The notes under the pieces were generated by a model. The model made no database searches and was not told where the DNA came from. It saw only the letters and a list, made by a program, of their open reading frames with translations. The translations under genes were made by a program, and so were the position numbers. Below are positions 1 through 63,385 of a stretch of DNA of 64,000 nt, in pieces. The stretch is from Eukaryota sp. GEM-RC1. Its lineage: Eukaryota. The stretch covers positions 1,364,001-1,428,000 of the forward strand of contig JAUFOQ010000006.1 of the NCBI GenBank assembly GCA_040285855.1, given 5' to 3'. Within the stretch, counting starts at the first letter, position 1. The number at the start of each line of letters is the position of its first letter.

Positions 1-895
1 AATTTGAGATTTTAATTCAGATTCATTGAATTTGTCAACAGCTACAAATTCAATTGAATCTGAATTTTGGCCAGAATTTTGAATTGTTTCAAATTTTCTC
101 TAGCAACATCAGTATTCTTTCCGTATAAAATTGTTTGGTTTTCAACAGATTCTGCTGTTTCGAAATGAGTACGCAGAATTGATTTCATAAAATTATCTAA
201 CAGACCCAATCTCAATTGATTTAGAAAATTAAAAAATTGTGAGTCTGATTGTTGCCGAATACTTCCAGCCAGTTCACAATATTTAAAATTTAAATTGTTC
301 CAAGCTCTTGATGAAAAAGCGAAATCTGAAATTACCACTTTTCGATTTCCTTTTCCATCAAGACTTTTCTAACAGGGGCTAATTGAAGAAAGTCCCCAAA
401 ACAAATTATCTGAATTCCTCCAAATGGTTTCTTCGGGGAGTGACATTTTTGCGTGTGCATAAGTTCGCTCAAAATGTCACTCGCCCGTTGAAACAATTTG
501 GAGGACAACATTGAAATTTCATCAATGATCAACATTGAATTTCTTGCTGTAATTTTTTTTAACAAAATTTTGACATTTGATGGCATACATTTGATAACAT
601 CATGTATGGATTCTTCTTCTTTCATAAGCTTATAACCAAACAGTGAGTGTATGGTCTGTCCACCAAAAACAGTTGAGGCAACCCCAGTTGTTGCAGTGAA
701 GAAGATTTCACCATTAGCACGCATGAGACGAGATCCAACGTTACTCCACCAGTTTTTGAGAGCATGTAAAAGATAAGATTTTCCTGATCCTGCACCGCCA
801 GTGACAAAGAAGTTGCGTCTGCTGGTAGTGATTGCGTTAAAGATCTCACGTTGGTCATCTGTGAGATTGATGTTGTGTATAGTGGTTGGTGGCAT
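1..895 (-). CDS. PIF1-family SF1B DNA helicase, partial (runs off window start; frameshifts near 335 and 50-90)
   Basis: Motifs FFVTGGAGSGKS (Walker A), TATTGVAS, GGQTIHS, LIIDEISML, PFGGIQIICFGDFLQLAPV in ORF 332..895, then IRQQSD..F..LNQLRLG in ORF 42..338. Confidence 0.88.
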
Positions 896-1051
896 TGAGT
901 TGATGGATTGTTTGAGCGCAGGGAAACTTGGTCTTCATCAAATTTCTCTTTCAGAAGCCCCTTATCATACGTTAGCTTTGTCAGAGAGTGATGTTTTGTA
1001 TGGGTTTGGGTACAATGCCCAGAATCAGAAGCTGAGCGATATAACGTATAT

Positions 1052-1917
1052 TTGAATTCTTTCTACGAAGATGACTGGTTTAGAAAGAGGAAATTCCAAA
1101 TTTATTCAAATAACCAACGGTCGGAAAAAAACATGCTGGAACGCTTCAATTTAACATATGGACCTCCAGAAGACGTCGTCATTGGCTATGGGGATTGGAG
1201 CTCAAAAGGTAAAACAAGAAAGGGCAAAACCTCTACTGTGGAAATCCGTAAAATGTTAAGAAAATATGGATACCAAATATTTCTTGTTGATGAATACAGA
1301 ACAAGCAAGTGTTGTTCCAAATGTGCTAAGGAAAAATCAACTTTCGTAGAATGTGAAAATGTTTCAGAACTAAAGGTTCTTGGTCCCAAAGGCAAGAGAC
1401 AGCTAAGAAGGAAGAAGAGAAAGTTAAGAAGAGAAATTTTGCTCAAAAACAAACAAGATCCTCTAAACCAACGGGATTTTTGGAAGCAGAGTGGGAGGTG
1501 AAGCAGAAGTCATTGGAAGAAGAAGCTAAATCCACACCCTGGGGACTGGTAAGGTGCTCAGGTGCTAAGTGTGGTACTTATTGGAATAGAGACCTAAATT
1601 CTGCCATCAATATCTATTCCATCATTGAAGCAACGATCAATGGTCAAGGTAGACCATCCGCTCTCGAGAGATCTAAAACTCAAACAACAGATCTCGAGAG
1701 TGGTAAGGATACTTTGGCGAGAGACCAGAAGAAGAAGAAGACTGCGACCAAAAAGAAGAAAACTTCAACAGGAAAGACTCGTAAGAAACCAACATGTGGA
1801 AATTGTGGCCAAGAAGGTCATAACAAAACGTCATGCAAGAATCCACCAAAAGAAATGAGTTCGCCTAAAAGAAGAAGCGTAAAGTCAGTCAAGAAGAAGA
1901 AGGTCTCTCGTAAATAA
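1052..1917 (+). pseudogene. 5'-truncated Fanzor1 (TnpB-like RNA-guided nuclease), C-terminal half, with CCHC zinc-knuckle tail
   Basis: FY..WFRKRKFQIYSNNQRSEKNML, VIGYGDWS, FLVDEYRTSKCCSKC (RuvC-II E plus Zn finger), CSGAKCGTYWNRDLNSAINI (RuvC-III D). Frames join by adding one A at GAAAATG ~1356-1359. No RuvC-I (DPG) found upstream. Tail CGNCGQEGHNKTSC. Confidence 0.85.
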
Positions 1918-10049: not shown

Positions 10050-10546
10050 ATTCTGGGTGTGAGTTTCTATTTTTGCCTTCAATCAAACGCAACCCTAAGC
10101 AGTATCATTTAGTGTTTCATTTAAGTGTTTTAGTCAATTTTTAAATTGTTCTCACAAACTCTGCGTGAGACCAATTTTGTATTGAGATTAAATGTTTCTT
10201 GAAGTGTATTGTTTGTGAACATAACTAAAGTACAGTACCCTCATATTGAATTTTGCATTTGTTGTATTCTATATTTATTCTTTTTTTCTGTGCATTTTTG
10301 GTCCTGACTGCTATCTTGTGGTAACAATGTTGCTATTTGTTTCATCCATGGAACGCAAATCCCCGAATAGCCGATTTACAAATACATTTGCTATTTTGCA
10401 ATAGGCCACAATCCCAGACGTAACCTCATATTGACTTGCCAATAATGATCTTTCAGATACTCATTTATTGTTTCGATGTATTTAAATTTTTACAGTCCCT
10501 TCTGTTGGCGTAAACTTCGTAACTTATATGTGGTGTTAATTCATGT

Positions 10547-11755
10547 TTACAATACAATGGGCTTGATCCTGTCTTTTGGCAACCCTAATACACGACCCTT
10601 TGAAATCTCGAGAATAGTCTCTTGGAGTTTCGGGGATAGACGGTTTGAACGTAGGTTAACAGCTTGAATGTTAGAATTGACTTTCAAGATTTCTACCAAT
10701 GATATCGCTGTCTCAGTATCAATAGAGTTATTGACCAGTTCCATTAGAACAATTGTAGAATTTACTCTGAGCATTTCAAACAAGGCCATGCCACCTTTTG
10801 GCCCGATAGAGTTTTCACTGAGATTAATATAAGAAATAGAAGAATTTTCTTTGAGAGCATTGGCTAAAACAATAGCTCCTTCATCACCAATAGAACGGTT
10901 TTGTAGACGAAGTGAAGTAATTGAAGAATTTACTTTTAACACTTCTGCCAAAGCCTTGGCACCCTCTATAGTGATGATTGCGCTTTCTGGAGGACAAAGG
11001 AAAACATCGAGACAAAGATCAGTAATTGTTGAATTCACCTTCAAAGCATCAGCTAATGTTATGACTTCTTCGTTATCAATAGGCCTATATAAGAGAGATA
11101 ACTTGGTTACAGTAGAATTTACTTTCAACAATTCAGACAATTTAGTACAAATCGATGATTTGTGAAAAAATAGATCCAGTTCTTTTAGTCTTGAAAAATA
11201 GAATGGAGAAAAACTGTTCAAAAAGTCCAAGTCATTATCCTTGTCGATCCCCACTGAAATTCCTGTAATGATATTACAGTAGGGAACAAGGTCTTCGAGT
11301 TTAGGGGCTACATAATCCCACAAGTACACAGATTGAACTTCTGAGCCAAAGAAACAAGCTAATGAAGATTGGAGGGGTAAGTCTTGAGAAACAGTAGGGA
11401 AACAGTTGGATTCAAAGAAGTCTTTCATTGTTGCAAGCACACATTTAAAAAAACTTTGACTCACATAACCAACTTTCTCAAAGAGGGTTGGCAGTTCTTG
11501 CTTCAAACGGCTAAGAGGAATACGTGGATCAGATTGATATCGGTCGAGAGAACAATTCAAAAGAAGATCGAGCAAATGAAGATTGATCAAACTTAAGATT
11601 GATTCGGGTAAACACAATGGCTCAGATGATCCTACAGTAGAGTTCAACTCAGGTGAAGAAAGATAATCTGAGGAGAAGTCACTGACTGTATCATCATGCG
11701 ATAGACTGTCATCAGAAGAACGAGTCATCTTCACAGGAGGATAATTGTGAGGCAT
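10547..11755 (-). CDS. RI-like LRR protein (paralog of 42388..43534)
   Basis: LKVNSTITxLxLxxNxIGDEGAxxLA repeats; near-identical to the inverted copy at 42388..43534. Confidence 0.88.
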   Translation of the reverse strand: MPHNYPPVKMTRSSDDSLSHDDTVSDFSSDYLSSPELNSTVGSSEPLCLPESILSLINLHLLDLLLNCSLDRYQSDPRIPLSRLKQELPTLFEKVGYVSQSFFKCVLATMKDFFESNCFPTVSQDLPLQSSLACFFGSEVQSVYLWDYVAPKLEDLVPYCNIITGISVGIDKDNDLDFLNSFSPFYFSRLKELDLFFHKSSICTKLSELLKVNSTVTKLSLLYRPIDNEEVITLADALKVNSTITDLCLDVFLCPPESAIITIEGAKALAEVLKVNSSITSLRLQNRSIGDEGAIVLANALKENSSISYINLSENSIGPKGGMALFEMLRVNSTIVLMELVNNSIDTETAISLVEILKVNSNIQAVNLRSNRLSPKLQETILEISKGRVLGLPKDRIKPIVL

Positions 11756-11839
11756 GTAAGTACTATAATGTAGCAGAATTTCTTTTTTTTGCTTGTTGTA
11801 ATCTAGATTGTAAATCAGTAAGAGCGCTTTTACCAAGGA

Positions 11840-21064: not shown

Positions 21065-22865
21065 ATAGCGATTAATGATGGGTTTGCATAACATCCATAC
21101 TTTTTCTTACAATTAGAATTTCCAACTGTTAAAATTTGTGCTTATGCTGATGATTCTTCGCTGATCGCTCCAGTTGACGTTCTCAAAAAGTGTTTTTCAC
21201 GTTTCATCGAACTTTCTTTGAGTATTGGTTTAACAATTAATTTTGATAAGTGTTTTCTTGTTGTTAAGTCTTCGAATGTTTCTAATCTTGGTTTTTGTAA
21301 TATTCCTATCATCGATTATTCTACTCCAATGTTTTCGTTTCCTTGGCACGTTTTTGGGAAATTATGAGAAAATTCATTCAGAATTGGAGAGTTCATTAAC
21401 TACAATTGAAGAAAAACTAAATCAAATATTATCTTTAGATGTGAGCAAACATGTTTCCTTTGCTATGCTTCAGGTCTGTTTTTCCGGGAAAATTAATCAT
21501 TTTTTACGTTCATTAGACTATTCCCTTACTGAAACATTTGCCAAGAAATTTAATTCTATTAGAACAAATTTTCTCTCTAACTTGGCTGAAATTGATGAGT
21601 CTAAGATTCCATTTCATGCTTTTTATTCTTCTGAATTCGCAGGAGTAGGTTTCACCCATGCAAAAATCATTAGAAAATCTGCTCTTTTAGGAGGTGTTAA
21701 GAATTTTATGTTTGAATTTTTGAAACGGTTTCCCTTGGATGGAATCAATCTGTTGAATTCCAGTAATTGCCGTTGGATTCAATCTGCTAAAGATTTGTTA
21801 TCATCTTTGTCTCCTGAAATGTGGGAATCTTTGTTCCCTGTTCATTTGAAGGAGACTCCTTTAAAAATATTTCATCTCTACCATCTGCTGTATGTAAGCT
21901 GCAAAATAAATTGACAAGGAGTTTGAACTCTTGGACTTTAATAATCGTATTAGCTTGGCTAAAACTAATAGTCCCGAGTTCGCTGCTTTTTTAATCGATC
22001 TTTGTAATAGTGGACCTTCTGGATTTATTTCTCAAATTCCAAAGGTGTATGGATTACATCTATCTGATGAAGCTTGGATGATCAATATGCGTCTTCGTTT
22101 GGCTATTTGGCCTGCAAATTTATTAAACTATTCAACGTGCTCTTGTGGAGCTAATGGTGTTTTTCGTCATTTAATTAATTGTTGTTATTTTATTCATCTC
22201 CGTGCAGTAATTCATGATGGTGTACGTGATTCTTGTTATTCCATGTTTAAAGCACATGGTTTTCACTCTAAAGTTGAACCAGTTTTGAATCATCTTTCAG
22301 AAAATGAATTTACTGATCAAAAACGAGGGGATCTACATACTCCGTGGCTTAAATCGAGTCAAGCATTAATGGATTTTACTACAGTAGATGTATGTAACAA
22401 ATCTTGTGTTAGTAGGATATTAGATTCTTCTTTTAATCCATTAACAGCAGCTGAAAAGCTCAAACACATCAAGTATGACTCTCAAGTAGAAGAATTAAAT
22501 AGAAACTCATATTCCAAATTTGTGTTTCAACCTTTTGCTGTTTCTCTTTTTGGATCTATTAGTCCTGCTGGTGATCAATTTTTCAAGGATTTCGAAGAAT
22601 TGTGTAAAGAAAAGAAGCGTAAGTTTAGAATGGCTGAATGGAAAAACCGTATAGTGTTTTCCATATATCGGAATATGCCTTTCTATTTCTCTAGATTAAT
22701 TGAGAAATTGTACAAGTTTGGTGTGAAGGTTCATGTAGATAAACGTAATCTTTTACCGGGTGGTGATGAAGTCGTTTGGATTTAATCTTAGTATTATTTG
22801 TTTGTTTTTACAATTTCATAGTTTGTAGAAAGGTTACCTTATTGGGTGCCGAATAAACATCTCTC
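21065..22865 (+). mobile_element. 5'-truncated CRE/NeSL-type non-LTR retrotransposon (family A; RT + CCHC + RLE), longest copy in window
   Basis: RT YADD (~21146-21157), GLTINFDKC, FRFLG; CSCGANGVFRHLINC; RLE motifs IHDGVRD, KVEP, KRGDL, DFTTVD, AEKLKHIKY, FQPFAVSLFG; 3' end AATAAACATCTCTC. Confidence 0.9.
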
Positions 22866-26320: not shown

Positions 26321-28557
26321 CATACCTAGGAAATACAGATACACTGTATCCTGTATTTGTATCTGTATTCTGTATTTGTATCTGTATCCTAACATTGATT
26401 AATATCGTGTATTCTATATTTTGTGGATTTTCTTCAAACCCTTCAATTGAAACTGACAAAGAAGCTCCCACCAGTCGACTGCAATAATAAACAGCGTCCA
26501 CAAATTTTGTTCAAGGATCAAAAGACATCAGATGTGTATCCAACTCGAAACTGTTAGATGAGCACACACAATAGCATTTGTTTTTCCCTTATTATTCAAT
26601 GTATGTATGTTATTTCCAATCATCTCTCTGATGTTAAAGCAACATCTCCTTTGGGTGTACCGAAGAATATTTTAGCGAAGGAGGGAAATCTCAATATAAA
26701 GGTAAAAGAAGTTTTTCGACTAACAGTCACACTGATGATAACCGAGTTTTGAAGTAATTTACATTCTTAGACTTTAACTGACGTAAAAATAGTTAAATAT
26801 GTGATACCTTAGAGTAGAACGAGAACAAAATCATTTTTATAAATGGAATATAAGGATTTCAAAGCTGTACCAACATATGTTTAACTATTCGAGAGAAATA
26901 AAAATGCATATTCCTATAAATGGAAAACACAATACGCTTTTTCCACTCAGATTTTAGAAACTTACGCTACTTTTCTTTATAAAGTTCTTCAAAATCTTTG
27001 TGAATTTGTGCACCAGCAAGACTAATTGATCCAAAAGCGAAACAACAAATTTGGAACACAAATTTGGAATACATGTGAACAATATATGTTTAACTGTGTT
27101 TATGAAATACAAACTTATCTAACAACAATGACAAGTACATTGCCACGTCAACAGTAGAATCTTATGACCAATGATGTCTTTGTATCTGTATCTGTATTTT
27201 TGTATCTGTATTCTGTATTTGTATCTGTCTTTGGAAAGAGAGATGTTTATTCGGCACCCAATAAGGTAACCTTCCTACAAACTATGAAATTGTAAAAACA
27301 AACAAATAATACTAAGATTAAATCCAAACGACTTCATCACCACCCGGTAAAAGATTACGTTTATCAACATTAACCTTCACACCAAACTTGTACAATTTCT
27401 CAATTAATCTAGAGAAATAGAAAGGCATATTCCGATATATGGAAAACACTATACGGTTTTTCCATTCAGCCATTCTAAACTTACGCTTCTTTTCTTTACA
27501 CAATTCTTCGAAATCCTTGAAAAATTGATCACCAGCAGGACTAATAGATCCAAAAAGAGAAACAGCAAAAGGTTGAAACACAAATTTGGAATATGAGTTT
27601 CTATTTAATTCTTCTACTTGAGAGTCATACTTGGAGTGTTTGAGCTTTTCAGCTGTTGTTAATGGATTAAAAGAAGAATCTAATATCCTACTAACACAAG
27701 ATTTGTTACATACATTTACTGTAGTAAAATCCATTAATGATTGACTCGATTTAAGCCACGGAGTATGTAGATCCCCTCTTTTTGATCAGTAAATTCATTT
27801 TCTGAAAGATGGTTCAAAACTGGTTCAACTTTAGAGTGAAAACCATGTGCTTTAAACATGGAATAACAAGAATCACGTACACCATCATGAATTACTGCAC
27901 GTAGATGAATAAAATAACGACAATTAATTAAATGACGAAAAACACCATTAGCTCCACAAGAGCACGTTGAATAGTTTAATAAATTTGCAGGCCAAATAGC
28001 CAAATGAAGACGCATATTGATCATCCAAGCTTCATCAGATAGATGTAATCCATACACCTTTGGAATTTGAGAAATAAATCCAGAAGGTCCACTATTACAA
28101 AGATCAATTAAAAAAGCAGCGAACTCGGGACTATTAGTTTTAGCCAAGCTAATACGATTATTAAAGTCCAAGAGTTCAAACTCCTTGTCAATTAATTTTG
28201 CAGCTTACATACAGCAGATGGTAGAGATGAAATATTTTTAAAGGAGTCTCCTTCAAATGAGCAGGGAAAAAAGATTCCCACATTTCAGGAGACAAAGATG
28301 ATACCAAATCTTTAGCAGATTGAATCCAACGGCAATTACTGGAATTCAACAGATTGATTCCATCCAAGGGAAACCGTTTCAAAAATTCAAACACAAAATT
28401 CTTAACACCTCCTAAAAGAGCAGATTTTCTAATGATTTTTGCATGGGTGAAACCTACTCCTGCGAATTTAGAAGAATAAAAAAGCATGAAATGGAATCTT
28501 AGACTCATCAATTTCAGCCAAGTATTTGGAAATGGTTTCGTGTATTTCCTAGATTTG
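26321..28557. mobile_element. Non-autonomous hAT-like element containing a CRE insertion
   Basis: TIRs CATACCTAGGAAATACA / TGTATTTCCTAGATTTG; near-TSD ACTAAATC 26313-26320 / ACTCAAATC 28558-28566; TGTAT(C/T) subterminal repeats. Confidence 0.78.
27238..28522 (-). mobile_element. 5'-truncated CRE-like family A copy
   Basis: Near-identical to 21580-22865; flanked by T(C/A)TTTGGAAA at 27228-27237 and 28523-28532 (TSD). Confidence 0.92.
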
Positions 28558-34010: not shown

Positions 34011-34195
34011 CTAAACTGTTAGAATGCACAGAAGCCAATTGCAATAGTACTATGTTTGAAAAGGCAATACACCTCCACTCCAAAATTTGTATTTGTAAAT
34101 CATTTTAGGTCAATCATAAATAGGCCTCAAATAAAATAAAATCACATCGGTTCGGATAAACAAAATCGGTACGTACCAAAGATTTGCGCACATTG
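34011..34195. mobile_element. Right-end fragment of the 5141..5726 MITE family
   Basis: Colinear with 5542-5726; the terminal AATCGGTACGTACCAAAGATTTGCGCACATTG is identical. Confidence 0.85.
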
Positions 34196-34289
34196 AAATT
34201 ACTCACTTACTTTTATCATTGAAATGAGTGAATCCTAAGATTCAATAATTCTACAGATTCACTGTAGTAAATAAAGGCTATGACTATGA
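34196..34289 (-). ncRNA. Putative Fanzor omegaRNA scaffold
   Basis: Minus strand after the stop: CTACAG-tgaat-CTGTAG, TGAATC-ttag-GATTCA, ACTCATTT..AAGTGAGT (one G-U pair). Confidence 0.5.
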
Positions 34290-37200
34290 CTATGACAAAT
34301 AACTGGGTCTAGTTCCTAGACCCCGCTCCAAATGATGCTCCACAATTGTCTTGATGTTGATACATGCTAACTTGTTACGATTCCAAACATTGGCACTACC
34401 ATGACATTCTTCCCTACATTCTTGGGACTTGCATCTCAACAAAGCGTGACACTCTACAAGGGGTTTCTTCTCTCTTTTCCATGGTTTTGGATTACTGATT
34501 TCTTTGAACACTTTAACTGGCTTCCAACAAGTAGGACACTTTGAAGACGTGTAACTCTCATCTACAAGAACAATATTGTAACCATTTCTCTTAAAGAAGT
34601 TTCTCCAACCAACACCTCTACTTGATCGAAGGTGTTTTAGGTTCTGCGTCTTATTACCATTGTCACCAAACATCAATACACAGTCATTTTTATTCCATCC
34701 TTTTGCAGTCATATTTTTCAACAACTTACTTTCTGTTTTTTGAATATGGACGTATCTTTGCATTTTTGAATGCGCCATATCATCAAACAGTAGTAATCAA
34801 ATGTTGATTCAATAACTGTTAGTTTGGAACTCACATAGTCATAGAACGTGTCATAAAGAGTGGACTTCGAATTTTCTTTGGATAATGTTGACTCTTCTTC
34901 TTCAACTGTCTTTCCATCTCGGAGAATGAATTCTTTTTTCTTTCCCCTTCTAAACTTTTGATGAACCCTTGACCATCTGGACCATTCTGTCTCTGTCAAT
35001 CTTAGCCACTCATATTCTTTGTTTCTTCTTTCTCGGGCTTTTTGTTCAGGAAATGGCCTATTTACTTTCTCTGAACAAAAATAGAGTAAATCTGTTTTTC
35101 CAGGGTCAATAAACACTTTTGTTTTCAATGAAAACTCTTCAACATCATAGTCTTGAACATATTCTTCTTTACTGGAGAACTTTGCACTGTCTGGTTTAAA
35201 TGACATTCCCACACAGTCCTCTCTGGTAAGTTCAACACAAGCAGAGAAACCATCAGTTTTAATGGTATTGTTAAACTTATAGCCTTTCTTTATAAATGGA
35301 CGATTAAAGTTGAAAAAGTAAGACCAGAATTGATTTTGTTCAGCAGGAGACATGTGTTCAATTTCAACTTTTGTGTTCCAATCAGACATTTTCTTCTTGA
35401 CATTCACTTGTTTTGTTGACAAAGTGGAACGTAATATTCCCCAAAGACCTTGTGTGTCTATTTCAAAGAAACCTGGTGTGACGTGACGAACAATAGGAAT
35501 TACATTGTAAGCACTTGCTCCTTCACTTTCAAGATAGTTATTTATTTGAATCGCAGATTTAATAAAGGATTGAGGATGTTCACGAACTGATGTTAGTAGA
35601 GATTTAACGACTTTCTTTTTATAAACACCATTAGCATTTTGAACATCAATTGATGGTGGGAAGAGAACATCAATAAAATATTTATCTCTAAACAATCCTT
35701 CAACATAGTCGTTAGTTGCCCACAGAAGTTTAATTTTACCTGCAATGTTCAAACTTCTATTACTGTCGTCTTGAAGAATTTCTGTATTACATCTTTGAAT
35801 AAATTGTTTTATTTCTGCAGGGGTTTTTGGAATGTCATTTCTGTTACCTTCAAGAAAGACATTTTTAACTTGTCTAAGTCTCCAACGAAAAACAGACTGT
35901 TCTTTTTTTGACATTTTTTCTTCTTGATCAGTCTTTTGAAAATAAACATTAATAAATTTGTCAATGTATTGAGCATATCGCATTTTAATATTGGTGTCCA
36001 AATTCGATTTAATAGTTTCACCAACCATTGCCATAAGTCGTGAGGAATGAGCAGCTGGAAAGAGTGGAATTCCTCCATTGTTGAGCATTACTTGTTTGTA
36101 TTGATTTGTAACAAATGTTCTCAAGTGTTCATTAAATGTAGGAGGTCGTCCTTGATTACATAATTCAATCTCATGATGTTCAGCAGAGATGTTTCTTAAC
36201 AGAGTTTGAATATGTTCTACTTCCTTCCTTGTAATTAATCGTAATTTTTCACCATTCTTATCCATGTGTAATAAAAACAGCTTCAAACAATAGGAAGTGT
36301 GCATTCTAAGTTTGTGAACCAATTGAGCATAATAATCGAGTAATAACGTTAATCCAAAATGTTTGACAATAGACTTGAGTGTAGTCTTATGTGTTACGAA
36401 AGTGGGACGAACTATTTTATTTGATTGAAATAATAAAAACAACTTCAATGCTAGTACACTATCTTTGAAGCAATAGTTCACAACTTCTTGAGGTCTTTCA
36501 ACAACACAATCAATAGGCAATAAGTGGTGAAATTCGTCATGAAGACGTCCTTTAGATTCGTTTAATAAAAACCAACTTAATGATCTTAAAGACTTTGAAC
36601 ATTTTGAAACAATAAATTGCTTAGCATAGCCGTATGAATCACAGACAATTCTACCAGCCCATTCAGAACAAACTTTCTGCCATAGAGATGATAAATGAGA
36701 TTTAGTTGTGTCATCTAGCATTGGTTCTGGAAAGTCGACTCCAAGTGTATCAATCCTTTTGTCTAAAACAACATTATCGAAGTCAGTGATGTTAAATCCA
36801 GTTAAAATAGAAGGTTTTTATCATTCAAATAGTTGACAAAAAACTCTAGTAACTGTTTTTCGTCTTCAAAAAAATGAAGGTTTCTACAATCAGGTGGCAG
36901 TTCAACATCAGATTCATGAGTCAACTCATAAGTTGCAACAAAATTGTCTTGAAGGTAAAATTGATCTTTTATAAAATGACCAAACACTCCAGAAATCATA
37001 AAAACTTGTTGGTTTTGAATCCACACTTCTTTTCTGCATCACTTTTCATTTTGAGAGATTCATTCTCGTTCTTTCTTTGATCGTCCAACTCCTGTGTAAC
37101 TGTCTCTGCAGGGATCTGATCAATTTCTCTAGTTTCAATATCAAAAGACAATATTGAACAATGATTAGAGTTATTTGGTAATTGGGAATGTTTCAGAAAC

Positions 37201-39809
37201 TCAATCATTGGTTTTTTAGAAGGTTTCAAACTCTTTGTCGCATTTGATACTCCACTTGCTTTTGGTTTGGTGGTTTTCCTTTTGGCAACTGTTGTTTTTC
37301 TATTTCCTGTTGCTTCTGTTGTTTCAGTGGTGTCAGATGATTCAATTGCTTCTGTTGCTTCTGTTGTTTCAGTGGTTTCAGATGACTCAATTGTTTCTGT
37401 TGCTTCTGTTGTTTCAGTGGTTTCAGATGACTCAATTGTTTCTGCTGTTTCTGTTGTATCAGGTTTCTCACAAGCAGCAACATATATTTTTGGAGTTGGT
37501 AAATGTATTTCTGGAAGATCTGTCAACTCTGGACGACTAAAGCTATGATAACTTTCTTGAAACAATTCTTCAGCTTCTTCCAGCGCTTGTTCAATCATTT
37601 TTAACTTCAAAAGACGTTTCTTTTCCGGTTAGATAAATTTCCAGGTAAGCTTTTCAGAAAGTTTTGATAAGTGAGCTTTGACACCGTTTCCTTGTAACTA
37701 CTATCATCTACCATTGTTTCAGGAGTTAAACTTTCAGATTGACACTGTACAGGTTGATTAACAGGTGATACAATCTCATCAGAATAAAACTCATTTAAAA
37801 TACCTTGAGCATGAGTACATACATATTGTCGGTATTCATCAGGGTGATCTTCATCAGGGTGAGTAGTAACGATTTGAGACAGTATTTGTTTTCTCATTTC
37901 TAATGCATTATAAACAACACAGTTAGAGACTTTAGACAGAATTTCGAAAAGATTTGTTGATGTTGATTCACTCTCGACAATTTTATTCATATACATTAGA
38001 ATAAATAGACCACAGTCATTGAGAGTTTGGACTTGTTGAACTGGTACTCTAGCTATATAGCTGAAATTTGCCATATCAAACAGGAATTGCTGTAATTGTG
38101 AAATGACTTTGTCAATACGTGATAAAGTGTTAAAAAACTGAGAATGTTGATCTTCTGTACACATTGAGTCAATAGAGAAGTACTGTTTGTTTTCAATATC
38201 ACAGATTAACAGTGACCAGTGAGTGGCTGTTGTACCAAAGAGACCATCATGTATTGGAATAAACAAGAAACGTTTCTTACACTTTTTAGTGTGTCTTTTA
38301 CGGGACTTTTCCATTGATAATTGAACCTCTCTAAATTGTTCAAACATTATGTTATATTGTGAAAGATTAATAGCATCTTGAATGTTGGCTACTTCAAAGA
38401 ATTCACATAGATTACTCTTTTGAGCAATGTACTGACCGACATAGTCAATGACAGAATCATGAAGCAGTACATTTGGTTTCCAGTGAGTCAATTTGATCAG
38501 ATCTTAGTAAAAGTGGTCTAGGACGAGATTGTGTTAGAATTCCACGATGTTGATGTTGAATAAGTTGATATTTTTGCGAAAATTTCTTCTTTTTTGGAGG
38601 ATATTTTCTAGATTGACGAGTTTTTCTTGTACGATTTGAGTCCATAAGTTGATTGGGTATAGTCAATGGCACTTGTCGAGTTTCATCAGGAGATAAAATT
38701 ACTGTTGGATGTTCGGCTATTTCAGAAGTACCAGCAGATCTATTCATTTGTTGTTGCAAAGGTGTAGAATGAACTATAGTACTGTGTTCTTGAACATGTG
38801 CTTGAATGTTGTTTGAAAAGTACTCATGTACAATACTTACAGCAAGTATAGCAAAAGGAATAGGATGCGTGGTTGCTATCAGATTTAGAACTTGTTTTCT
38901 CATGTCAAAAGCATCATAATCGACATAACCTTGGACTTGAGACATAATTTCCTGAAAATTGTCAGATGATGATGCCAAATGAACAAATCTTTGCATATAC
39001 ATTAAGATATATGGTCCACAGTCGTTGGGAGTTTGATGTTTAATAACTGGGAGCTTTCCTAAATTTGAAAAATTACCAAAATCACGCAAATATACCTGTA
39101 ATGTACTTACAACTTGATCATTTTGAGTTGAAACGTCAAATGAAAGTTGAGTTGAACTGTCAGTGTACATTGAATCAAGTGAAAAAAATGATGTACTGTC
39201 AATGTCACAAACAAGTAGAGTCCAATGAGTTGCTGTACCACGAAAAACACCATCGTTTATTGGAATAAATAAAAACCTTTTCCCAGTCTCTCGCATTGAA
39301 TTCTGAACATTTAGAAATTTAAGAGCTAATGTGTCAAAATTGCCATAACTCACTGCAGCATGAAGATTCCCGATACGGAAAAACTGGCATAACTCACTAT
39401 TCTCGGTGATGTACTCACCATAAAAGTCAACAACAGAATCATCGAGCCATACGGAGGGCTTCAATGTGGTGATTCCTTCCTCAGTGACAAAAGGACCAGG
39501 GTTTGACTCTATGTCTCCATCCGTGGTTAAATCACGGAGAAATTGTGATGACTGGAGACTTGATTGTAGAAAAACCATACAAGTGCTGACTTTATGATTG
39601 TAAAAACAAAACAACGACTGAGACGAACTCAAGACTTTCCCTAACAACAACAAAAGAAGAAACAACATAGAATAATTCGAGAATCCATGAGAGAAAAAGG
39701 AACGCCTCGAGAAAATATGTTCTATTGGCACATCCTTAAACACGTGATCGTGTTTGGTTGATGAAAAGAAGAAGGAGAGAGATCTCAGGACACAAGTATC
39801 CATAAACAT
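34290..39809 (-). CDS. Reconstructed polyprotein: leader-2A-Ulp1/SENP8 protease x2-repeat linker-PolB-type 3'-5' exonuclease-Fanzor1
   Basis: Six track ORFs join by single-base fixes: one extra G at ~38480 and one missing A in A-runs at ~37622, ~37031, ~36817 and ~34765. Protease motifs HWTLLVCD/LDS/QTPNDCG and HWSLLICD/IDS/QTLNDCG; Exo I SFDIET, Exo II ILTGFNITDFD, Exo III NYCFKD; Fanzor IKTDGFSA, VFIDPGKTDLLY, MFGDN, LVDESYTSSKCPTC, CKSQEC, WNRN..ACINI. Confidence 0.82.
37309..37458 (-). repeat. 45-bp coding tandem repeat (~3.3 units; ETTETTEATE[T/A]IESS)
   Basis: Unit TTGCTTCTGTTGTTTCAGTGGTTTCAGATGACTCAATTGTTTCTG repeats on the + strand. Confidence 0.9.
39492..39539 (-). other. 2A-like (StopGo) ribosome-skipping peptide LRDLTTDGDIESNPG|P
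   Basis: Exact match to the GD(V/I)ExNPGP consensus, with the typical upstream LRDLT context. Confidence 0.9.
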
Positions 39810-40288: not shown

Positions 40289-40916
40289 CAGGGGTGGGAA
40301 AACAATATTGCTCCAATATTTATTTCCGCTCTTTGAGGTGGAGCAATATTTATTGTTACACCGGTTAATTATTGCAACATTGCAATATACTTTGAGTTGT
40401 TCATTTCGTTGTTTTGCATCACCATTTGGACTTCCAGAACCATTTTTGTTGTCTTATGTGTTTAAATATAATTAGAGTTGCTTTATCGGTAATGATTGCT
40501 AGTGTTCATAATGTATATTATTTGAGCTCAGTTCGAGTCTTTACTGACGTACAATGTAAATTCTTTCCTCTGAAGTGATTTTATCTTGAGCCCTCCAGTC
40601 TTGAAATGCAATTAATAATGAAATAAAACAGTCATTTTTTAGAATGAAGCAAATGTAAGACAATCATGAGCAGTAATCAATTCGATGATCTAGACAATTG
40701 TGTTGAGATTGTTTCGGATATATCTGATGATGATGAACAATATCATATGTGGATGTTTTTGTAATAAATACATAATATGATTCATATTGTTGCAATATTG
40801 CAATATTGGTCGAATAATTGCAATATTTATTGGCACTATTTCAGAATTGCAATATTTATTTTGTGGCATATATATATAAATATATATATTTTTTGCAATA
40901 TTGTTTCCCACCCCTG
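40289..40916. mobile_element. hAT-like MITE (628 bp)
   Basis: TIRs CAGGGGTGGGAAAACAATATTGC / GCAATATTGTTTCCCACCCCTG; perfect TSD AGTATAAG 40281-40288 / 40917-40924. Confidence 0.93.
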
Positions 40917-41156
40917 AGTATAAGTGGTCTTTGGTAATCTTTGCGAATTAAATGATCTGTATGTACAATGAAAATTAAAATGAATTTCCAAGACAACTTT
41001 CTGGGATTCGATCACACCATATTGGGTATTTGTCTTAACAACCGATGTCACTTTTGATGAATACTACTTGTATCTGATAACGTCTTCAGTATTTCTTGAT
41101 AAGTATTATTCCTCAATTTGTTTCTATGGAACAGAACATCAAGAAAAGTTCAAAAA

Positions 41157-41830
41157 CTAGAACTCAATATCATTAAAGCAACATTCATTGCCATTAAAAC
41201 TCACATCAGCTATTTTTTCATAAAAAAACACTGAGAGCTAATAGAGCTTTTGAAATCATAATAGGAATTGTTGAAAATATTGTAAAGACAACCAAAACTT
41301 AAAATCAAATTTCTTGTTCATTCTTTTTTGGACAACTTTCTCAAAATCAGTGACAAAACAAACAGCATCTTTACCATGTCGACCATAAATTGAAATCGCA
41401 AAGGGACATAATTTGTACTCAACGTGTCTAGCATGTTTGAGAGTAGTCAAGGGAACATCTTATTTGTTTCTCTTGTATTGTTCTGAGAAAGCAAGGGGAT
41501 GCACTTCATTTTTAGCATCCTTTAATGCACTTTTTGACCAACATCCACAGTAATCACATCAACAACCGTCAGTTCATCATTGACTGATTGAACAAGTATA
41601 GCTGTTCTTCCCTTACTTAAAATCCTATCACAATCACCATTTTTTAAATTATTGATTTGAAGTGATCTCAACAGTGTCTCAACGAAAGATTCGATTTTGT
41701 AGGACTTACACATTGCATGAATTCGTTCTCTTACAGCATCATGAATGCAAGTTCTATATGTATTGAAACGATTACAACTCAAAAGATGAGAAAAAGTAAC
41801 TAATTTACCATATTGGTGGTTTGAAAATCT
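41157..41830 (-). mobile_element. Degenerate 3' part of RLE non-LTR family C
   Basis: HLLSC..IHDAVR..ESFVE..VDVITVD..PFAISIYG; similar to 62676-63385. Confidence 0.8.
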
Positions 41831-42387
41831 TCCTTTTTGAATTAAGAGTACGGTATCCACAACCGTGGTCCTCTGGAGACATCATTCGCTCATCTCCTAG
41901 TAAATGGGTGAATCTGTGTCTATATTAGTTGAATCTTTGAATGCTGATGTATGAACGACTCTGTTTCCTACAAGTGTAACGGCGACTCCTCGTCGTTCTT
42001 TATCTTCCCTACCCTTTTGTATTGTAGAATATATTATTGTAAGACTGGAGTTATTGTAATATATTGTAAAATATACATTGTATTACAATATTTGGCTCAT
42101 GCAATTCACAGAACAAGTTGGTTCTTGTGCTCTTAGACCATGTTAGTCAGGAGAGTATGGTAAACGTATACGAATCTAAATTCTTAAATCTTAAAACACC
42201 ATTGCAAAAAAAAATCGCTGATTGTTTTATATTAGAAGCTTCCCGTCCCTTGGTAAGTAAAGTAAAGTTGCGTATCCTTGGTAAAAGAGCTCTTTCTAAT
42301 TTACAATTACAACAACAAACATTGATGATGTATAGTGTACTTGTTGTACAATGAGACTCTAATTCTGCTACATGTAGTGACTCTTAT

Positions 42388-43534
42388 ATGCCTCACAATT
42401 ATCCTCCTCTGAAGATGACTCGTTCTTCTGATGATACGGTCAGTGACTTCTCCTCAGATTATCTTTCTTTACCCGAATCAATCTTAAGTTTGATCAATCT
42501 TCATTTGCTCGATCTTCTTTTGAAGTGTTCTCTTGACCGATATCAATCTGATCCCCGTATTCCTCTTAGCCGTTTGAAGCAGGAACTGCCATTCCTCTTT
42601 GAGAAAGTTGGTTATGTGAGTCAACGTTTTTTTTAAATGTGTGCTTGCAACAATGAAAGCCTTCTTTGAATCCAACTGTTTCCCTATTGTTTCTCAAGAC
42701 TTACCCCTCCAATCTTCATTAGCTTGTTTCTTTGGATCAGAAGTTCAATCTGTGTACTTGTGGGATTATGTAGCTCCTAAACTCGAGGACCTTGTTCCCT
42801 ACTGTAATATCATTACAGGATTTTCAGTGGGGATCGACAAGGATAATGACTTGGACTTTTTGAACAGTTTTTCTCCATTCTATTTTTCAAGACTGAAAGA
42901 ACTGGATCTATTTTTTCACAAATCAACGATTTGTACTAAATTGTCTGAATTGTTGAAAGTAAATTCTGCTGTAACCAAGTTATCTCTCTTATATAGGCCT
43001 ATTGATAACGAAGAAGTCATAACATTAGCTGGTGCTTTGAAGGTGAATTCAACAATTACTGATCTTTGTCTCGATGTTATCCTTTGTCCTTCAGAAAGCA
43101 AAATCATTACTATAGAAGGTGCCAAGGCTTTGGCAGAAGTGTTAAAAGTAAATTCTTCAATTACTTCACTTCGTTTACAAAACCGTTCTATTGGTGGTGA
43201 AGGAGCTGTTGTTTTAGCCAATGCTCTCAAAGAAAATGCTTCTATTTCTTATATTAATCTCAGTGAAAACTCTATCGGACCAAAAGGTGGCATGGCATTG
43301 TTCGAAATGCTCAGAGTAAATTCTACAATTGTTCTGATGGAACTGGCCAGTAACTCTATTGATACTGAGACAGCGATATCATTGGTAGAAATCTTGAAGG
43401 TCAATTCTAACATTCAAGCTGTTAATCTCCGTTTAAATCGTCTATCCCCGAAACTCGAAGAGACTATTCTCGAGATTTCAAATGGGCGTGTATTAGGGTT
43501 GCCAAAAGACTGGACCAAGCCCATTCTATTGTAA
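42388..43534 (+). CDS. RI-like LRR protein, inverted paralog of 10547..11755 (frameshift at T-run 42627-42634)
   Basis: Protein near-identical to the 10547 copy, with two in-frame N-terminal deletions. Confidence 0.82.
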
Positions 43535-43779
43535 ACATGAATTAACAGCACATCTAAGTTACGAAGTTTACGCCAGAAGCAGGGACTGTAAAAATCTAAA
43601 TAAACGAAATGATAAATCTAAAAGACACAAATGTATAAATGATTTATTAAAATACTAAATACGATATAAATGAATGATATTGAGAGTTCTTTCAAATACA
43701 ATATCAGCTTTGGACCAGAGCTGGACCAATAAGAGCACACCCATAACTGAATCTAATAAAATACACAAAAGGAGGATGA

Positions 43780-44530: not shown

Positions 44531-44962
44531 GTCCAGTTATATAACTACTCAGTAGATTTGGGGAGCCCTTCTAGTACTTTAATTTAGTGTGTGTTTTTGT
44601 TATTGCTTCAGATCTGGTTTTGACCAGAAGGTCCTCTTTTATTTACCTCATTTACATTCAAGATCATTAGGTAAATTAGAGGGCCTTTCATAAAATCATT
44701 TTAAATCACTTTTAGAGTGAAATATTGATTGGAAGGGCAAAAACCAAGACCAATACATTGCAATACAATATAACAGAGCATATTTCTAATGCACCCTCTC
44801 TATTTGCACACAAATTGTGAGCAATTATAGAGGGTTCACTGTAGATACTGCTCTTGGTTTCAAGTCTATGAATGCGCTGTACATGCTCTGATTTATTAAT
44901 ACATGTGGTCTGTGGTAATCTTTGCGAATAAAATGATTTACAATAGTTAAAAAGTGCAATTT

Positions 44963-49754: not shown

Positions 49755-50389
49755 CAGGGGTATGAAAACAATATTAGAATTTTCCAATATTACAATCAGT
49801 ATTGCTCCAATATTTATTTCCGCTCTTTGAAGTGGAGCAATATTTATTGTTACACCGGTTAATTATTGCAACATTTCAATATACTTTGAGTTGTTCATTT
49901 CCTTGTTTTGCATCACCATTTGGACTTCCAAACCCAGTTTTGTTATTTTATATTTTTTTTAAATTTAGAGAGTTGTTTTATTGGTAATGATTTCTAGTTG
50001 TTGGATTGTCATAATGTCCGTCATTCGAGCTCAGTTCGAGTGTTTACTGAAGTACAATGTAAATTCTTTTAGCTGAAGTGATTTTCTCTGAAGCCCGCCA
50101 GTCTTGAAATGCAAATACTGATGAAAGAAAAGAGTTATTATTGGGATGAAGTTACTTTAGGACAGATCAGGTGTCGTAAAAAATTCGAAGATGTAGATAA
50201 TGGTATTGAGATTATTTGGGATTCTTCTAATGATGATGGACAATAGAATAAGTGGGTTTATTTGTGATAAATACATATTATGATTCATAGTGTTGCAATA
50301 CTGAAATATTGCAATACTGGTTGAAGAATTGCAATATGAATGTTTTGTCTAAAATATGTTATACTTATTACAATAATGTTTTCACACTG
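49755..50389. mobile_element. hAT-like MITE, same family as 40289..40916
   Basis: Internal colinearity with 40289-40916; TSD CCTCGATA 49747-49754 / TCTCGATA 50390-50397. Confidence 0.85.
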
Positions 50390-62478: not shown

Positions 62479-62675
62479 GTGTAGGAAAGATTTTGACAAA
62501 AACTCGGCCAAAATAGGAAACTTGAACTCTTTGTCTTTTTCAAGAGTTCTGTATCACACATCAAATCTGGTTCAATGAGTGACTCTGACAGAGCTGTCCT
62601 AAATGTAGGTTTTAAGTGTGTTTTCAAATCTTTTTTTTGTACTAGAGTTTATTATAAACGTAATAAATCAAACAA

Positions 62676-63385
62676 CTAAAATTTGATGTCATTAAAACAA
62701 CACCCGTCGCTATCAAACCTTACAACAGCTTTGTCTTCATAAAAGGCACTCACTGCTAATAGAGCTTTGGAGATGATTAGGGGAACTGTTTTAAAAACAG
62801 TAAAAACGATCCGATTCAACCATAACGTATGATCAAAACGTTTGTTCATCCTATTTTTTACGATTTTTCCGAAATCGTTTAAAAAATTCAATGCACTTTT
62901 CCTAAACGTCCGTAAATTGAAACGGCAAAGGGCATAATTCGTACTCAACATGTTTTACATGTTTTAAAGCCATCAATGGTTTTCTGTACATATCCTGTTT
63001 GGCCTGTTCAGAAATGTCTAAAGGAGAAGTTTCAGACGAAGCGTTCTTTAAAGATGTCTTTTACAAACATCCACTGACACTACATCAACAACAAACAATT
63101 TGTCTGAAGAAGAAGGGACAACAACATCTGCTCTCCGTTTACCAAAAAATTGGTTCTGTTTTTCGACATTATAATTATTACTTGGTTCTAAAGATCTTAA
63201 AAGTGGTTCAACAAATGACTCAATTTTGTAAGACTTACACATAGCATGTATTTGATCTCTTACAGCATCATGCATACACGTTCGATAAGTTATGTAGCGA
63301 TTACAACTTAACAGATGAGAAAACGTTAATTGTTTTCCACAGCTACATTGAAGATCATTTGGCAAATTATATGGCCATAAATAAC
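62676..63385 (-). mobile_element. 3' part of RLE non-LTR family C
   Basis: CSCGKQLTFSHLLSC, MHDAVRD, FVEP, RRADVV, VDVVSVD, WLNRIVF. Confidence 0.85.

Follow-up and report, generated by a model that had tools for sequence, protein, structure and literature searches.

Results and Discussion

A canonical 2A (StopGo) peptide stands at the head of a long chain that ends in the RNA-guided nuclease Fanzor1, and we propose that it serves as an adaptor, through which ribosome skipping would free a Pro-initiated Ulp1-Ulp1-exonuclease-Fanzor1 chain from exchangeable 5' ends. Judging from the sequences compared here, we assign this reading a probability of about 0.7. The motif is conserved, the domains behind it follow a defined order, and the predicted leaders ahead of it vary and are often composed of tandem repeats; it is likely that, through the skipping signal, the RNA-guided nuclease chain is released from the leader that a copy happens to have inherited. 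The element was analysed in a 64,000-nucleotide stretch of DNA from Eukaryota sp. GEM-RC1, which we call the window, and its relatives were analysed as predicted proteins, using the sequences of the called proteins alone.

The 2A motif and the chain that follows it

Within the window the tetrapeptide NPGP occurs once (all six frames, 64 kb), and the chance expectation for the complete nonamer is 8e-7. The core D(V/I)ExNPG/P lies in frame inside an ORF, with in-frame ATGs 105, 103, 58 and 28 codons ahead of the final Pro and a Peptidase_C48/Ulp1 domain (Pfam) immediately downstream, which confirms, for the minus strand, the original prediction of a 2A motif some 105 codons past the first ATG and directly before the first protease domain. 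The part of this strand that follows the 2A opens with two Peptidase_C48 (Ulp1) domains, which an acidic repeat linker separates from a PolB-type exonuclease; a TnpB/Fanzor C-terminus closes the chain (Table 1). The two Ulp1 domains are 65% identical at the DNA level, corresponding to an internal duplication. The conserved 2A block is bordered exactly on its 5' side by the end of a 29-nt intron-like word (GTATG...CAG, 39552-39580 of the minus strand); such words number 31 in the window, counting both strands, and splicing of this one would remove the nearby in-frame ATGs.

Table 1. Features of the Fanzor1 element in the window (positions are those of the whole stretch)
Feature	Position	Strand	Remarks
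Leader ORF, type A	39552..39809	-	T-rich, four in-frame ATGs, one 31-35 aa unit
2A/StopGo element, 19 aa + Pro	39492..39551	-	39551-39492 translates to SSQFLRDLTTDGDIESNPG followed by PFV; core nonamer GDIESNPG/P at 39518-39492, codon of final Pro starts at 39494; DLTxDG upstream class
Ulp1/C48 protease domain 1, SENP8-like	38900..39491	-	THW 39230, SLDS 39182, DCG 39023 (His-Asp-Cys)
Basic PKKKK stretch, putatively NLS-like	38580..38600	-	prediction from sequence only
Ulp1/C48 protease domain 2	37880..38480	-	catalytic motifs present
Acidic linker, 45-nt tandem repeat	37307..37462	-	sequence repeat
PolB-type DEDDy 3'-5' exonuclease	36458..37145	-	DIE, GFN..FD, Y...D motifs; spread over three frames
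Fanzor1	34290..36450	-	RuvC-I DPG 35110; VDESY 34565; WNRN 34385; zinc finger
3' tail with small hairpins, tentative candidate for omegaRNA scaffold and right end	34190..34330	-	hairpin z-scores

As assembled, the chain of the window is interrupted by five frame breaks, near 38480, 37625, 37030, 36815 and 34765. The description of the locus as a Fanzor polyprotein thus holds for relatives in which the full chain is one called ORF (P0001, 1846 aa; P0005, 1905 aa; P0159, 1192 aa), and does not hold for the window copy in the sense of a single ORF. The break near 38480 is specific to this copy, as six other near copies read through it, while the remaining four lie in or beside A runs of 4-5 bases, with the frames on either side matching intact relatives; A runs of this length make up 9.4% of the element. 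In two control genes of the window, those of DNA polymerase delta subunit 2 and tubulin chaperone D, the frame also switches without an intron, at C7, T7 and T5 runs (window 55856, 14772 and 13709 (-)), and two other junctions are clean introns. Homopolymer breaks in essential host genes, together with the intact relatives, point to assembly indels as the likely cause of the frame breaks in the window copy. The break near 37625 may be a shared lesion or a programmed shift: all eight proteins that reach it end there (8/8, the window's own included), although protein clustering may favour copies ending near this position. Since no canonical slippery heptamer was seen by eye at this break, a programmed -1 frameshift is a minor possibility.

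Conservation of the 2A in near and distant copies

The element family is multi-copy. Using the 2A-Ulp1 region as query, nine proteins were retrieved among 474 candidates, amounting to 20 with cluster members, two of them the window's own; the closest bear the source names Eukaryota sp. GEM-RC1 (74-96% identity), TZLM1-RC and TZLM3-RCL. Ten of these 20 proteins carry the motif, canonical in every case, and the remaining ten, which begin beyond it or outside its frame, are uninformative on the 2A, so that the canonical motif is kept in 9/9 other near copies spanning the site. In P0176 and P0177, two of these nine that are fragments with a putative link to a Fanzor, the Ulp1 domain is ~30% identical over its first 80 residues and the 2A is 90-95% identical.

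Seven TZLM3-RCL proteins, representing four subfamilies, have a related 2A; in their exonuclease-Fanzor parts, identity to the window or among themselves is 25-49%. The 2A precedes two Ulp1 domains in P0001 and P0005 and one in P0159 and P0115, and stands directly before the exonuclease, with no Ulp1, in P0071, P0166 and P0167; its presence in this Ulp1-less subfamily indicates that the 2A marks the head of the ORF rather than being part of the protease module. The mean pairwise identity across five lineages is 61% within the 2A, 14% in the 19 residues upstream and 5% in the 20 residues downstream, a conservation in excess of the flanks that characterizes 2A/StopGo peptides. Leu-12, Gly-Asp and NPGP are invariant in 17/17 carriers, and the core is canonical in 13/17, the other four (4/17) having a Glu-to-His replacement. 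Between the window and P0005, the 2A is 57% identical and Ulp1 about 25%. The motif is thus conserved in other copies, near (9/9) and distant (seven proteins of four subfamilies), a point on which the original prediction had made itself depend.

When sought in other Fanzor loci, as had also been proposed, the motif is present in some exonuclease-fused relatives: among the best 150 of 306 full-library matches (E<=0.001), eight have an exonuclease, two of these with NPGP, and NPGP occurs in 0/142 of the Fanzor-like matches without exonuclease, 88 of which are at least 550 aa long. A quick tree of 29/168 proteins, with long-branch warnings for P0115 and P0167 and with the long-branched P0019 lacking an exonuclease match, places 2A carriers in both branches of a strongly supported clade that holds the exonuclease fusions. 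On these comparisons, the 2A is a family trait of the element. Some members are devoid of it. In P0002 and P0006 a repeat leader is joined straight to the linker, and P0003 and P0007, which are exonuclease-Fanzor proteins of different subfamilies, begin with helicase-like sequence (with DEAD and Helicase_C matches in P0007, degenerate and of weak similarity in P0003) yet are 95-96% identical to 2A carriers further down. P0003 and P0115 have in common a 58-residue patch of 91% identity. Truncation upon insertion, fusion in the gene models or genuine variation may account for P0002, P0006, P0003 and P0007.

A search with the first ORF returned no homologue of greater length, and metagenome scans gave no relative (0/283 and 0/287 pattern matches). 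A viral scan returned one locus, with 23% identity and without NPGP, and the ESM Atlas gave no usable match for the 2A-Ulp1 part, its leads being confined to the PolB-exonuclease and below 0.9. A single-sequence fold of P0159 had a pLDDT of 34.

Variable leaders ahead of a constant 2A

A distinct scenario emerges upstream of the motif. Five leader types are present among the ten near carriers, and leader length across carriers ranges from 52 to 247 aa. In P0169, P0170 and P0171 the first 80 residues behind the Pro match the window at 95-98% identity, whereas over the 32 residues before the 2A the identity is 31% (shuffle mean 20-22%, 95th percentile 28-31%); from this disparity the leader looks disposable. 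Leaders of types B-E have only weak matches to the window's upstream 1.65 kb in any frame, and are therefore not merely other frames of the same DNA, while faint shared words suggest that the leaders are distantly kin. Many leaders consist of in-frame tandem repeats with units of 29-51 residues, several of which contain Met; the 31-35 aa unit found once in the window is present about three times in P0174, P0185 and P0186. Between P0115 and P0167 the leader sequence is 76-82% identical despite only 26% identity of the exonuclease-Fanzor parts, which points to exchange between subfamilies. In the window the frame is open for 86 codons before the 2A, as seen in 1.1% of shuffles. Some of the leaders of relatives may be gene-model artefacts.

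The proposal that skipping would provide a fixed Pro N-terminus whichever ATG is used finds direct support at this level, since the leaders differ in sequence and length while the 2A and the downstream chain remain constant. The idea of a hydrophobic leader, MLFLLLLLLG, as the released product fares less well: this run is restricted to leader type A (5/10 near proteins, the window's included), that is, to one of five leader types, and is thus probably not conserved.

Likelihood of skipping and relation to known 2As

Fourteen of the last 15 residues of the window 2A match EoPV-2A2 (RDLTQDGDIESNPGP), which is listed at an activity of 0.99 in the supplement of PMC12338488, where PnPV2A2 stands at 0.48. 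The upstream tract belongs to the DLTxDG class, which, according to the accessible part of PMC12846837, pairs with Asp and Ser in the core and has a representative with ~100% StopGo in lysate. All 17 carriers have 1-2 Leu at positions -19 to -10, and W/F at -16, R/K/H at -14 and D at -13 dominate among them; the available portion of bioRxiv 2026.06.17.732966 links helices with 3-6 Leu to lower protein output, and gives W-16, R-14 and D-13 as viral traits. By these residues the carriers fit the viral skipping pattern and not the Leu-rich 'reduction' pattern. In view of the near identity to tested viral 2As, Gly-Pro skipping by the window 2A is likely. Many motif-perfect transposon 2As are weak or inactive, and the Glu-to-His replacement is linked to very low activity in Crack elements (PMC3708506, in excerpt). 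A literature search found nothing on 2A activity in metamonads.

Viral class A 2As of the DLTxDG class (motif 4 in the accessible part of PMC12846837; iflavirus EoPV-2A2 and PnPV2A2) have the same D-I-E-S-N-P-G-P core and, in common with the carriers, aromatic, basic and Asp residues at -16, -14 and -13. Unlike these, the window 2A is in protist chromosomal DNA, near the start of an ORF and behind a variable leader, instead of between two viral protein domains. The 2As of APE-type non-LTR elements (L1Tc, Ingi, CR1, L2, Crack, Rex1), as far as the accessible accounts go, occupy the same site near the N-terminus of a single long ORF; like the window's these are repeated mobile elements, Glu-to-His variants occur in both, and some carry deubiquitinase domains. 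However, the payload here is Ulp1, PolB exonuclease and Fanzor1, and the 2A is of the low-Leu viral type. An APE-type non-LTR retrotransposon was ruled against, as Pfam matched neither APE endonuclease nor reverse transcriptase downstream of the 2A, whether in the pieces of the window or in the complete P0001, P0005 and P0159. The 2A-like signals of sea-urchin NLR proteins (PMC4981915, accessible part) are likewise N-terminal with hydrophobic residues upstream, but belong to host genes and overlap a Leu-rich signal, whereas in the present element neither the place nor the sequence of the hydrophobic stretch is conserved.

The payload domains and the element ends

A profile of six clade members matches the Fanzor1 structures PpFz1 (1e-47) and SpuFz1 (7e-44), and the window Fanzor piece is 49% identical to P0001; homology to Fanzor1 is thus evident. 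The motifs DPG, FGD, VDESY, CPTC, CKSQEC and WNRN are present and compose a RuvC triad with rearranged Glu and a C-terminal zinc finger: the RuvC-II Gly is accompanied by an alternative Glu in VDESY, the zinc finger is of the form CxxC/CxxxxC, and WNRN provides the RuvC-III Asn. This last residue is Asn across the clade, versus Asp in 58/71 proteins where the motif could be read. The accessible texts describe the rearranged RuvC-II Glu in Fanzor (PMC10530073) and an active GtFz1 with Asn at RuvC-III (PMC11423790); the rearranged Glu of the window is thus a feature of the Fanzor1 nucleases (PpFz1, SpuFz1, GtFz1), and the Asn is as in GtFz1. In contrast to other Fanzor-like matches, mostly of 600-800 aa, Fanzor1 here forms the C-terminus of a chain of 1200-1900 aa, and in contrast to known Fanzor1 it is fused to an exonuclease, 0-2 Ulp1 domains and a 2A.

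The exonuclease retains all three of its motifs. Both Ulp1 domains exceed the Pfam cut-off for Peptidase_C48 and have the His-Asp-Cys motifs, and their nearest solved structure in the PDB is SENP8. No transposase was detected in the chain by Pfam, in the window pieces or in the relatives. Hairpins of the 3' tail have z-scores of -1.9 to -2.6 in windows chosen post hoc and 0.06 over 241 nt, and Rfam gave six sub-threshold matches only, with no hammerhead and none for the 3' tail. No convincing terminal repeat was found, nor a target duplication between the element flanks. A link between Fanzor and Penelope-like Chlamys elements was considered and dropped, as the accessible part of PMC8557442 does not mention Fanzor.

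Proposed role of the 2A and alternative explanations

According to the proposed adaptor role, translation would start at any in-frame AUG of the variable 5' region and the ribosome would skip the Gly-Pro bond, so that the disposable leader would be dropped and the chain would acquire one fixed Pro start. The leader repeats may represent exchangeable 5' ends, perhaps promoter monomers, each with an in-frame AUG, and T-rich leaders would give hydrophobic peptides that, unless removed, would mis-sort or burden a nuclear protein. The freed chain would work in the nucleus, with Fanzor1 carrying out RNA-guided cutting, the exonuclease trimming the ends and the proteases removing SUMO/NEDD8. Such an adaptor would let the element swap its 5' ends with the protein unchanged.

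A broader picture, which we offer tentatively and with the odds against it, is that of a transposase-less type of Fanzor element with a virus-style polyprotein, in which the 2A would be a universal adaptor for any 5' end (repeat promoters, leaders of other subfamilies, host transcripts), the SENP8-like proteases would disarm SUMO/NEDD8 silencing, and the exonuclease would trim the RNA-guided cut, leading to copying-in from the 3' end and to 5'-variable copies. Even the break at which 8/8 copies end behind the second protease could then reflect a further, programmed recoding event.

The 2A could instead limit output, with ribosomes stalling and dropping off, or with the product degraded, such that a toxic nuclease-exonuclease would be kept scarce and leader removal would be a side effect. 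We regard this as unlikely. It has been proposed for L1Tc and other non-LTR 2As (PMC3708506, in excerpt), 59-70% of tested retrotransposon 2As lowered protein abundance (available portion of bioRxiv 2026.06.17.732966), and the Glu-to-His variants would lower efficiency; however, in that partial account the reduction goes with 3-6 Leu in the helix, whereas the carriers have 1-2 and resemble efficient viral 2As, and such a role does not predict that leaders are exchanged precisely where the 2A begins. Limiting output and removing the leader could also coexist.

Considerably less probable is that the motif is an inactive relic of a captured RNA-virus or non-LTR module, or else a nucleic-acid signal such as a splice acceptor, in a family that is dead. 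The five frame breaks of the window copy, the intron-like word that directly abuts the conserved block on its 5' side and the existence of copies without 2A would agree with this, but the 2A is conserved far better than the adjoining enzymes in the window-P0005 comparison (57% against about 25% for Ulp1), with G, D, NPGP and Leu-12 invariant in 17/17; moreover, homopolymer breaks without introns also affect DNA polymerase delta subunit 2 and tubulin chaperone D, and relatives have intact ORFs.

Least probable of all is dual targeting by a signal-like leader, with the unskipped chain entering the secretory path and the skipped one remaining in cytosol or nucleus, since, in spite of the sea-urchin NLR precedent (PMC4981915, accessible part) and of the hydrophobic runs that several leaders contain (15-residue hydropathy peaking at 2.2 in the window and at 2.7 in P0159), these runs occur anywhere from 34 to 85 residues upstream with no common spacing, are weak in P0005 and absent from the type B leader, and follow from the 42% T of the window leader DNA, and a secreted RNA-guided nuclease has no evident use.

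Relation to the literature

A literature search, with most subscription papers outside its scope, found no report of a 2A in a Fanzor element among the papers listed. Within the accessible parts of the Fanzor literature examined, no natural fusion to an exonuclease or protease was found and, in those checked for it, the term 'polyprotein' is not used; in those of the 2A surveys, Fanzor is not mentioned in the main text, nor in the supplements of PMC12338488, where TZLM is also absent. The 4,218 non-viral 2A-like peptides of bioRxiv 2026.06.17.732966, of which a portion was available, may include these proteins unannotated. The accessible 2A literature describes mobile-element 2As from retrotransposons and leaves open the reason for their N-terminal placement. 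The parts are thus known, and their combination and the leader variation at the 2A edge appear undescribed. Near-identical copies with a constant 2A and differing leaders constitute a natural experiment, in which the adaptor role is directly testable. The present findings would extend StopGo to an RNA-guided nuclease element and suggest that metamonad ribosomes perform it, and natural fusions of Fanzor1 to a 3'-5' exonuclease and to deSUMOylase/deNEDDylase-type domains bear on the spread of Fanzor and on editor design.

Host setting and neighbouring DNA

The genes flanking the element encode Arf, tubulin chaperone D, phospholipase B and DNA polymerase delta subunit 2 (Pfam), and together with the 30-32 nt GT-AG intron-like gaps in window genes they indicate a compact eukaryotic genome. 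Isolates named like the GEM-RC1 and TZLM sources are free-living metamonads according to the accessible part of PMC11316075; that the source names of the relatives designate these isolates is our own reading.

Several other repeats and mobile sequences are found in the window. A MITE at 40289-40916 is bounded by CAGGGGTGGG terminal inverted repeats and flanked by a target duplication of 8 bp, from the length of which we take it to be hAT-like; it sits in a ~100-bp repeat, whose empty form is at 44843-44937, and a related internal copy is at 49794-50337. A decayed ORF at 41150-41881 (-) has an H-L-x-x-C...H motif, no Pfam match and a 67% copy at 62668-63339, and is presumably the C-terminus of a restriction-endonuclease-type non-LTR element. 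A Pif1 helicase is encoded at 42-934 (-) and, back to back with it at 992-1917 (+), the C-terminal part, interrupted by frame breaks, of a second Fanzor, which differs from that of the element and has Asp at RuvC-III; this locus, within which there is a palindrome at 416-505, is possibly Helitron-related. Two leucine-rich-repeat genes, at 10463-11780 and 42361-43617, are 90% identical and in inverted orientation, and a 1.29-kb inverted duplication of 98% identity (21580-22865 and 27238-28523) has as its end a repeat present at many other window sites.
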